DNA of 64,000 bases, from positions 1-64,000 of IMG/VR virus record IMGVR_UViG_3300032288_005778, one strand, 5' to 3'. Source of the DNA: a virus. Numbering within the stretch: position 1 is the stretch's first letter; the number at the start of each line of letters is the position of its first letter. The notes under the pieces are model-generated. The model had not been told where the DNA came from, did no database searches, and saw only the letters and a program-made list of their open reading frames with translations. Shown here piece after piece: positions 25,227-26,540 of this stretch. Position numbers and translations under genes: made by a program.

Positions 25227-25565
25227 TTAGGCAATTATCCAGTTATCGTCATTAATGACAATTACTTCGTTATAGAAACCCTGTATAATGCAATCTCTTA
25301 TTTCTACTTTGAATTGAGTACCAACTGGCAACCATTCAAGCTTTAACCCCTCTGTGTCGCCACTGAAGCTAAAGATTCCTATTCCAGTTAGTAGATCGTG
25401 AACTGCCTCGTATTGCGCGGGTCCATTACTTTCTATTAAGTTGATTAATTCAGGGAGAAAAAGCAATCGCAAATCTTTATGTGCGGTGTACCAACCTTCA
25501 ATCTCGAAACTCTTGGCTAAAACAACGCCAACCTTGTCATCTTTTATTAGTTTTCTGATTTCCAT
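25227..25565 (-). CDS. Hypothetical protein immediately downstream of a degenerate CRISPR repeat
   Basis: AGGAG RBS; LEWLPVGTQFKV..EVI pattern. Confidence 0.75.
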   Translation of the reverse strand: MEIRKLIKDDKVGVVLAKSFEIEGWYTAHKDLRLLFLPELINLIESNGPAQYEAVHDLLTGIGIFSFSGDTEGLKLEWLPVGTQFKVEIRDCIIQGFYNEVIVINDDNWIIA

Positions 25566-25590
25566 TTTTCTCCTGCCTTGCCTTGCAATT

Positions 25591-25620
25591 CTTGCAATTA
25601 ACCCAGTTCTCCAAAGTCAG
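25591..25620 (-). repeat. Orphan degenerate CRISPR repeat (R6)
   Basis: CTTGCAATTAACCCAGTTC (19/19 identical to the array repeat), then TCCAAAGTCAG. Confidence 0.85.
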
Positions 25621-25630
25621 CCTGCTTCAG

Positions 25631-26260
25631 TCATCCCCAATACCCTGCTGCTATCTCTAAAGCTTTTATTAGTTTTAGCTGCTTTAGGATTTCTATCTCC
25701 CAGTCATCAACCACCTGAATATTTGGTACTACAAGCTGGTCTAAAACATACTTAAACTTATCCGACCAACTACTAAAATTATAAAAGTCAGCAGACGTAC
25801 TGAGTTTTCCTATCGTTGCATTTTGTTCAACTAACCTCTTGAGCCTTTCTTGGAGCGTGAAAGACTGTAAATTCACTTTATGATGCAAACTAGCAAGTAG
25901 CTGATAGTTATCAACCTCTACCTCTTTAATTTTCTGTGCTATCAACACCTCTTGCTCACAAAAGTATCCCACTGTGCCATCCTCATGTTGCACGGTAACT
26001 GTATCTTGGTTTGGGTGCATACTAGGTCTACAGAGAATATACACTTCCGCTCCAAACCATTTTTGTTTAGTCCCTTGAATTATGGGACTTACAACCCCAA
26101 CTGGCAGGTTAAACTTCAGTGGAACTTTGTTACTCTCCAGCCATTCAGCGTCAACTTCTATTAAAGAATGCAAATCGTCTGTTTTTTGCTTATTGCAATT
26201 CTTGCAATTAACCCAGTTCCCCAAGGTCGGTTTCACCGTTATTAGTTTTGATTCGCTCAT
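25631..26260 (-). CDS. 209-aa hypothetical protein that starts inside the CRISPR array and reads through repeat R5
   Basis: GAGGAG-N5-ATG within the 52-nt spacer; repeat translated as VKPTLGNWVNCK. Confidence 0.7.
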   Translation of the reverse strand: MSESKLITVKPTLGNWVNCKNCNKQKTDDLHSLIEVDAEWLESNKVPLKFNLPVGVVSPIIQGTKQKWFGAEVYILCRPSMHPNQDTVTVQHEDGTVGYFCEQEVLIAQKIKEVEVDNYQLLASLHHKVNLQSFTLQERLKRLVEQNATIGKLSTSADFYNFSSWSDKFKYVLDQLVVPNIQVVDDWEIEILKQLKLIKALEIAAGYWG

Positions 26261-26540
26261 AAATTCTCCTCTTGCCTTGCCTTGCAATTCTTGCAATTAA
26301 CCCAGTTCCCCAAGTCCGGTTTCACCTTTCAGATCCTTATTCTTAGTAATTGTTCTAATACTTGCAATTAACCCAGTTCCCCAAGTCCGGTTTCACCTCG
26401 ATTAATAGATCAAGGGCTTTATCGCTTAACTTGCAATTAACCCAGTTCCCCAAGTCCGGTTTCACCATTTTCTCAGCTATATATTCGTTTTTGCAAATAA
26501 TAACTTGCAATTAACCCAGTTCCCCAAGTCCGGTTTCACC
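26201..26540 (-). CRISPR. Mini CRISPR array: five 37-nt repeats GGTGAAACCGGACTTGGGGAACTGGGTTAATTGCAAG, spacers of 37, 32, 34 and 52 nt
   Basis: Repeats at 26504-26540, 26430-26466, 26361-26397, 26290-26326 and 26201-26237 (last has 2 mismatches). Strand inferred from the cas gene direction and distal degeneracy. Confidence 0.97.

Follow-up and report, generated by a model that had tools for sequence, protein, structure and literature searches.

The locus described here lies in a 64,000-nucleotide (nt) window of the IMG/VR virus record IMGVR_UViG_3300032288_005778, a metagenome-derived contig of 82,388 nt of which the window forms part. It comprises the tail of a phage-borne CRISPR array together with two open reading frames (ORFs) of 209 and 112 amino acids (aa) that are built into that tail. 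On the minus strand, a Cas12u2 effector gene is followed by repeats R1–R4, a first linker (linker A) and an ATG, which opens the 209-aa ORF; this ORF reads through a further repeat, R5, and is followed by a degenerate repeat, R6, a second linker (linker B), the 112-aa ORF and a terminator-like hairpin. An earlier reading of the sequence (the original prediction) had described the same arrangement, with R5 translated in frame and the 209-aa stop about 10 nt before R6, and all of its coordinates were confirmed.

The array tail and its two repeat-linker units

The effector ORF (587 aa, 26511–28274, minus strand) is of the TnpB-like type V-U2 kind, matching the PADLOC Cas12u2 profile over residues 1–467 (E 4e-165) as well as Pfam OrfB_IS605 and Cas12f1-like TNB. 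Read by eye, it retains the RuvC acidic residues D, E and D in the motifs GIDPG, VMEDL and RDSNAA, and its stop codon falls within R1. The canonical array (26290–26540, minus strand) consists of four 37-nt repeats, R1 (26540–26504), R2 (26466–26430), R3 (26397–26361) and R4 (26326–26290), which are identical to one another at 37/37 positions and are separated by spacers of 37, 32 and 34 nt. The 18-nt repeat core, allowing up to four mismatches, occurs at six sites in the window; because only one other, unrelated and weak match was returned, the six-site pattern is not a product of chance. Effector relatives were found in eleven IMG/VR loci (six at 94–96% identity, four at 70% and one at 65%), and those with the same repeat carry it in up to 28 copies with differing spacers. 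Loci L007, L008, L009, L011, L017, L034, L066 and L126 all have this repeat with other spacers, and the spacers number 105, of which 78 are unique. The variable end of the array adjoins the effector, while old shared spacers lie at the far end, where the last spacer is common to L007 and L126. Repeats with unique spacers, a neighbouring Cas12u2 gene and relatives with different spacers, the three features expected of a type V-U2 array, are all present, and the locus is a genuine phage-borne CRISPR array. Beyond these relatives, the 17-nt repeat core returned at least 119 metagenomic stretches, the full repeat being present in 6 among the matches listed and the others being chance single matches; an 18-nt repeat-plus-AATT pattern found nothing in IMG/VR beyond three known contigs, and none of 49 stretches from GTDB genomes gave a further locus.

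R4 is followed by the 29-nt linker A, AATTGCAAGGCAAGGCAAGAGGAGAATTT (26289–26261), and then by ATG 26260. Linker A is composed of a slipped repeat end, AATTGCAAG, followed by GCAAG-GCAAG, and it closes with AGGAG-N5-ATG. Together with the ATG and seven codons that resemble the head of the 112-aa gene, it makes up a 52-nt 'spacer 4' (26238–26289, minus strand). R5 (26201–26237, minus strand) is a full repeat of a 'GACC' variant, agreeing with R1–R4 at 35/37 positions and with the GACC variant of related arrays such as that of L008 at 37/37, and it is directly followed by AATTGCAAT. R6 (25591–25627, minus strand) is half degenerate. It matches R1–R4 at 26/37 positions and the GACC variant at 28/37, with its last 19 nt perfect and its 5' half matching at 7–9 of 18 positions, and it resembles the array tail of L126. 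The 25-nt linker B, AATTGCAAGGCAAGGCAGGAGAAAA (25566–25590, minus strand), contains the ribosome-binding site (RBS) of the 112-aa gene and leads to ATG 25565.

The two linkers are identical over the first 17 nt after the repeat. The two units as wholes share a perfect 36-nt stretch (at 25574 and 26273), and their similarity extends past the ATG through the first seven or so codons. A repeat, a slipped repeat end and an RBS do head two consecutive genes, as had been proposed. Across five phage records and 12 loci, the 17-mer that follows R6 was found elsewhere only after R4, and a similar 17-mer in the phage genome G001 forms the start of an array spacer. At the site 5' of the 112-aa gene, the 17 nt that also begin 'spacer 4' adjoin the repeat end (AAG), just as in the array itself, instead of the GTT that stands beside the one protospacer in relatives. 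Downstream of the 112-aa gene, a terminator-like hairpin containing GCGATCGC is followed by a T-rich run (25203–25228, minus strand). Because neither linker contains a promoter-like site and no terminator-like site lies between the array and 25228, the array transcript probably extends over both genes, each of which has an RBS to itself.

In a contig that comes from a metagenome, repeats could have made a chimeric join between DNA of different phages; the 36 identical nt common to both units exceed the 31-nt assembly word, and the R5 variant differs from that of R1–R4. We used Logan unitigs from runs X2 and X3 (two studies) and X7 (a third study) as an assembly check. Unitigs of X2 and X3 match 25150–25603, 25580–26222 and 26196–26302 at 100% identity save for one single-nucleotide polymorphism (25272), with the 'spacer 4' region 26238–26289 inside a 107-nt unitig of each run, and unitigs of X7 span 25150–25609 and 25580–26126. 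The junctions R4–spacer 4–R5, R5–gene–R6 and R6 3' part–linker–112-aa gene each lie within a unitig in two to three independent studies. No single unitig bridges both units, since the 36 nt that they have in common exceed the unitig word, and their order is taken from the long contigs and from equal depth: the X3 unitigs have near-equal depths over the parts of the locus (58.6, 61 and 59.3), and the R5-containing protein is recorded in three assemblies, on contigs of 82,388, 97,209 and 18,215 nt. The 112-aa protein, too, is recorded from other assemblies, and the array tails of L007, L009 and L126 mix repeat variants in the same way. The order is thus probably genuine, and we regard a chimeric assembly as highly improbable. 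An RNA run, X12, yielded three small pieces, all from a relative (34 nt with three mismatches in the 112-aa gene, and 44–90 nt at the effector 3' end), and these carry no information on the transcription of the 209-aa and 112-aa genes. Nor is any meaning attached to the stretch 26326–26466, which the DNA runs leave bare.

The two ORFs and their homologues

The 209-aa ORF (25631–26260, minus strand) reads R5, as residues 8–20, in a frame that is the sole open one of the three across the repeat. Its stop codon (25633–25631) lies 3 nt short of the 37-nt R6 and about 10 nt short of the recognisable part of that repeat. Six homologue clusters share 63–73% identity with the protein. At the DNA level, homology to the copy in locus L019 (78%) covers 26192 down to 25646 only, beginning right after R5 plus AATTGCAA and ending 15 nt before the stop codon. 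The native N-terminus of the family, MSQKDISFTIQEAVQNRV.. or MEQPSNSLTIQ.., is replaced here by seven codons like those of the 112-aa gene head, 12 codons of R5 and the slipped AATTGC. Judged by these homology boundaries, the 209-aa gene is a chimera that lacks its native first ~24 codons. By eye, the first in-frame ATG after R5 is that of M81. A profile search of 1.84 billion representatives retrieved four proteins for the family, and none of 451 JGI metagenome stretches contained a member. A word search for further ORF-repeat fusions with residues 1–40 of the protein (among proteins of 114–366 aa) returned its own cluster only.

The 112-aa ORF (25227–25565, minus strand) is a complete member of a conserved phage family. 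Its eight homologue clusters share 54–84% identity, and the N-terminus MEIRKLIKD is identical in six of the eight, with K2 in P0011 and V3/K4 in P0016. Homology to the gene in locus L020 covers 25567 down to 25212, taking in the whole ORF together with 2 nt in front of the ATG and 15 nt behind the stop codon, and distant homologues occur in ten Vibrio phage records. The homologue loci L019 and L020 are plain phage gene rows in which a repeat remnant was not found within ~10 kb of the 209-aa and 112-aa homologues, respectively.

Both ORFs are, on this conservation, real cyanophage accessory genes without an assigned function. In Pfam, PHROGs and PADLOC, neither protein matched any family, whether of toxins, of defence proteins or of another kind, and a PDB profile search with both gave non-significant matches only (E 0.069 or more). 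A Pfam match to ATG5 (E 0.0021) fell under the cut-off and was disregarded. Atlas features, obtained for the 112-aa protein only, scored 0.81 or less. Neither gene is present in the related effector loci L007–L018 (0/12).

Variable cargo and repeats at gene junctions

The far border of the region is a convergent thymidylate-synthase-like (thyA-like) gene (23685–25130, plus strand; Pfam Thymidylat_synt), which is 95% identical in DNA to its counterparts in L009 and L126 from 25139 and 25121 downwards, respectively. The genome that contains L009, G002, is collinear with the present one from 18 to 36 kb at 90–94% identity, except in the interval between array and thyA. There, the array of G002 is longer, and the two ORFs are replaced by a gene for a 340-aa AAA-type ATPase that has a promoter-like site to itself. 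The array tail of L126 abuts thyA through a repeat, AATTGCAAGATCAAG and a degenerate repeat, R', which the thyA ORF enters. In L007, a 79-aa gene lies between repeats, and the last repeat is followed by AATTCAAGCAAGCAAGCG and then by a 67-aa gene. L017 carries a second whole array and a 622-aa Cas12u2-like gene at the same place. Because these relatives show the same junction with different cargo, the AATTGCAAG slip after the last good repeat appears to be an old trailer feature behind which a cargo hot spot lies. The comparison of related loci suggested by the original prediction has thus brought to light both another gene between repeats and other cargo.

Next to thyA, we also found a solitary degenerate repeat of a second CRISPR family (25143–25181, plus strand; GTTTCAAC...GTTGCAAG type), which matches the repeat of L017 at 87% over 39 nt, or at 30/36 in another comparison. 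It is the sole copy in this record, and its array and the 622-aa Cas12u2-like gene are found in L017 and L034; no second effector is present in this record (G000). The solitary repeat could be a relic or a decoy.

Repeats were found at other gene junctions as well. In L055, a solitary repeat contains the GTG start codon of an ORF of the Rha family, which reads the repeat in the frame used for R5 and matches Pfam Phage_pRha from residue 13; the corresponding fusion in L035 is interrupted by an early stop. In L120, a solitary repeat has a 48-aa stub on one side and, on the other, a PAPS-reductase-like ORF that is truncated at its N-terminus. Past the array tails of L007, L011, L017 and L066 lies a partial repeat (the 3' 18 nt), which encodes the C-terminus of an opposite-strand ORF of 186 aa in L066 and of a shorter or contig-truncated one in L017; the ORF list of L007 has no opposite-strand ORF ending in its partial repeat. 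In the Aphanizomenon phage vB_AphaS-CL131 (CL131), the annotated ATG of gp060 lies within the truncated terminal repeat.

Duplicated gene heads are frequent in these phages and not confined to arrays. Among perfect direct repeats outside arrays (24 nt or more, 100–4000 nt apart; five phage records), both copies lie at gene starts in 8 of 26 rows. A 62-nt unit in G004, at 49263 and 49575, contains a GCGATCGC pair, an RBS, an ATG and five codons; the two genes that it heads are neighbours but otherwise unrelated. The present genome has a perfect 72-nt unit (33191–33262 and 34801–34872) that extends, in each of two different genes, from the upstream region across the RBS and ATG to the seventh codon. 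By this likeness, the unit of repeat, linker, RBS, ATG and seven codons is a gene-head module of the same kind, with the CRISPR repeat included. Furthermore, the 79-aa gene of L007 and the 112-aa homologue of L020 are flanked by perfect direct repeats of 36 and 37 nt, each unique in its genome and as long as a CRISPR repeat. Cas1-Cas2-like integration of gene-sized DNA was considered and rejected, as the perfect direct repeats of these phages span 24–127 nt without a peak at 36–37. Of the marks of repeat-mediated modular shuffling, junction repeats at the heads of small genes and different cargo in collinear relatives were both observed; no excised circle or recombinant joint was present in the contigs compared.

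We consider it probable that two accessory genes recombined into the trailer end of a V-U2 array and that the repeat-linker-RBS units are scars of this recombination with incidental translation signals. The trailer end, between the array and the convergent thyA-like gene, would be a hot spot of gene shuffling into which two unrelated, promoter-less accessory genes entered. The junctions would be copies of the last repeat and its slipped trailer (AATTGCAAG-GCAAG...), which also supplied an RBS. The 112-aa gene would have come in whole, and the 209-aa gene as a fragment without its first ~24 codons and last few. What holds its frame open would be a second copy of the unit made up of repeat end, linker, RBS, ATG and seven codons of the 112-aa gene, after which R5 is read in frame. 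Both genes would most likely be transcribed as a 3' extension of the CRISPR RNA precursor (pre-crRNA) that ends at the hairpin after the 112-aa gene, and both proteins would be made. Recombination joints for gene capture were the alternative offered by the original prediction, and it is this alternative that gains support from the differing cargo at the array-thyA junction, the L007 gene between repeats and the repeats at junctions of truncated genes. The locus has the look of something left behind by gene shuffling, not of a switch made for a purpose.

Several observations fit this reading less well. R6 retains exactly the 3' part of the repeat, which is the part that matters in truncated repeat-spacer units of type V-K systems, and exactly 17 nt after the repeat are common to both units. 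In P0025, a member of the 112-aa homologue cluster closest to the present protein (84%), the called N-terminal extension MRGKKAKQGNREK resembles the GCAAG-type linker, and from this the pairing of linker and 112-aa gene may be older and conserved rather than a one-off. The chimeric 209-codon frame is intact and identical in the runs of three studies and in three assemblies, which fits selection as well as recency. The recombination itself could have been a single illegitimate cross-over of co-infecting phages or the integration of a repeat-bearing circle.

The same features could instead be working parts, and the original prediction had favoured such a tie between expression and effector, as in an addiction module or an anti-CRISPR sensor. 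Both genes would lie on the pre-crRNA; processing at R5 would remove the RBS and ATG of the 209-aa gene, and the effector, seated on the R6 handle with the linker as its 'guide', would mask the RBS of the 112-aa gene, so that the proteins would be made only when the effector is absent or inhibited. The lack of a promoter-like site between array and genes agrees with this, as do the single terminator after the 112-aa gene, the full length of R5, the intact 3' 19 nt of R6 and the recurring linker-112-aa pairing hinted at by P0025. The RBSs lie 17–24 nt after the repeat ends, at the edge of the typical type V guide length, and CRISPR-repressed toxin modules and regulatory crRNA-like RNAs are described in the accessible parts of published reports. 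Against it, neither protein matches a toxin or defence family or anything significant in the PDB, the genes are missing from all 12 related effector loci, and the homologues fetched sit in ordinary phage gene rows. The absence of repeat remnants beside homologous genes, which the prediction had itself named as counting against it, was thus seen at one fetched locus for each gene. The Rha fusion, in frame in L055 and broken in L035, behaves as scars would, and cutting of these repeats by V-U2 effectors or host RNases is an assumption. The addiction module or sensor is therefore unsupported, rather than disproved, and we think effector-coupled expression quite unlikely. Its most explicit form, in which Cas12u2 or a guide-maturing RNase decapitates the 209-aa message at R5 and masks the 112-aa RBS at the R6 handle, would amount to a translation-level effector sensor in phage-phage warfare, unlike the promoter-level CreTA systems, and is more doubtful still.

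A trailer-end spacer common to L007 (8598–8631) and L126 matches the 3' end of thyA, at 29/30 positions in the present genome (25112–25141) and at 32/34 in G002, with a 5' GTT flank. The matched site is the exact border of the variable cargo region, and the thyA end of L126, which bears the spacer, is truncated 10 nt into that protospacer. These matches bear on a further possibility, namely that array guides cut co-infecting relatives near the array tail and that repair with the attacker's DNA makes breakpoints in repeats, moves cargo and spreads the CRISPR module. GTN is the protospacer-adjacent motif (PAM) reported for cyanobacterial type V-K systems in the accessible text of bioRxiv 10.1101/2021.02.06.429022. 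The retained D, E and D of the effector also fit, as do the different site of the CRISPR module in G001 and G003 from that in G000 and G002 and a spacer of L009 (9003–9037) in which 19 nt of the other repeat variant, from its 5' part, recur in inverted form (GGCGAAACCGACCTTGAGG). However, only two spacer sequences (3 of the 78 unique spacers, those of L007 and L126 being near-identical) have a non-array match in the DNA compared, and one of them bears on the border. The PAM is derived from a single protospacer family, cleavage by V-U2 effectors is an assumption, and nothing links the insertion of the 209-aa or 112-aa gene to a cut. We consider nuclease-driven capture or homing unlikely. A definition of the PAM was attempted and given up, since there are two protospacer families only, with flanks GTT and TGG. 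With the array as a DNA query, whole relatives gave array-to-array matches only.

The inverted copy in the L009 spacer may be a scar of rearrangement, or it may act as a guide directed at rival arrays. In G001 (57235–60784) and G003 (31823–33684), the effector-array module lies directly beside a 186-aa gene region, which in the window (26200–30445) is ~2 kb away on the other side of the effector. Going by gene order, the CRISPR module sits at differing sites in related phages. A 295-aa ORF upstream of the effector (28395–29282) is missing from the otherwise collinear G002, a second insertion or deletion beside the module.

Other features of the spacers and of the effector tail deserve mention. 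Spacer 1 (26467–26503) matches its own genome at 37/37 positions (13840–13876; 5' flank ..CATTGG), within a 77-aa ORF on the minus strand (13752–13985). The self-target site is also present in G002, at 36/37, and the pair of spacer and self-target was found in runs X2, X3 and X7. In the arrays of L007, L008, L009, L017 and the window, the shortest spacers measure 28 nt and the longest 45 nt, apart from the odd 'spacer 4' with its 52 nt; this is a broad range for arrays that have no adaptation genes in their vicinity. A type-1 spacer of L007 (7850–7883) resembles the first type-2 spacer of L017 (9803–9837) and L034 at 24/26 positions, and with respect to the ..TTGCAAG repeat end both point the same way; on this match, both array families sample one common target. 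Effector residues 468–587 lie beyond the Cas12u2 profile match. The CL131 effector ORF ends at the equivalent of residue ~466, and the DNA from there to the array is non-coding (compare window 26511–26870; L018 6383). About 230 nt of the effector-tail region are deleted in L055 (1–173) and L035, and a relative's RNA-run contig covers 26511–26600 at a depth of 44–60. The tail may be an RNA scaffold or leader rather than protein.

If the two accessory genes did arrive by recombination, as we favour, the trailer end of phage V-U2 arrays would be a hot spot for the gain and loss of accessory genes and, in one relative, of a second CRISPR system. Type V-U2 arrays have been described in phages before, and their tails have been little examined so far. 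Repeats that serve as junctions and are sometimes translated would offer a concrete case of recombination substrates for gene capture and for the origin of chimeric genes. Since the genes would share a transcript with the guide RNAs, repeat processing would have to affect their expression: a cut at R5 would leave the body of the 209-aa gene without its RBS and ATG, and a cut at R6 would spare the 112-aa message. Should an effector sensor, or guide-directed homing at the cargo border, prove true instead, CRISPR systems would be seen to control or spread the genes beside them in a new manner.

Comparison with known systems

The closest named relative is CL131, whose TnpB-plus-array locus was assigned to type V-U2 by its authors, according to the accessible text of Sulcius et al. 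2018 (PMC6293099). Its effector DNA is 77% identical over 43% of the query. As far as that text describes it, CL131 resembles the present phage in being a cyanophage in which a TnpB-like Cas12u2 gene precedes an array of 36–37-nt repeats without other cas genes. Additionally, its next gene, gp060, abuts the truncated terminal repeat. In contrast to the present locus, CL131 has another repeat sequence and 10 spacers without a gene between repeats, and the accessible part of PMC6293099 does not describe genes in or fused to the array.

V-U2 arrays share spacers with type V-K (Cas12k) arrays, as stated in the accessible portion of Hsieh & Peters (bioRxiv 10.1101/2021.02.06.429022). In the cyanobacterial V-K systems covered by that portion, the repeats are 37 nt long, and a partial repeat retaining the 3' part stands where the array ends or beyond. 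R6 has this shape, as do the 18-nt partial repeats of L007, L011, L017 and L066. V-K units further have a guide of 17 bp, for which a protospacer with a GTN PAM is present at the attachment site (same preprint, same portion), whereas a partial repeat was found here and a guide with protospacer and PAM was not, in the five phage records and 12 loci. Transposon genes are absent from this locus.

Lone repeats in virus genomes, such as those at 25143–25181 and in L055, L035 and L120, recall the solitary repeat units and RNA anti-CRISPRs of Camara-Wilpert et al. 2023 (PMC10651486), to the extent that the accessible text sets them out. The repeat at 25143–25181 is single in the record and matches another phage's array. 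R5 and R6 differ from the units described in that text in belonging to the phage's own array family and in lying in or beside coding sequence.

CreTA-type modules offer another likeness, since degenerate repeats flank an odd 'spacer' beside genes that may depend on the effector (bioRxiv 10.1101/2024.01.05.574328 and 10.1101/2024.12.27.630466, accessible parts). CreTA systems, as presented there, act at a promoter by partial pairing of guide and target beside a PAM, while no promoter target, PAM-like flank or toxin signature was found at the 209-aa and 112-aa genes. Neither a match between guide and promoter nor a conserved linkage to cas genes was seen (0/12 related loci), with P0025 as a hint to the contrary.

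In T4-type phages, promoter-early stem-loop elements act as repeated regulatory cassettes in the modular shuffling of small genes. There as here, short repeated junctions with expression signals flank small accessory genes in variable regions, and they are, here probably, recombination substrates. The junction at the present locus differs in consisting of a CRISPR repeat and its trailer, with one gene fused in frame. What is new here, as we read the locus, is that accessory genes have recombined into the trailer of a V-U2 array in a phage and that one of them is fused in frame to a repeat.

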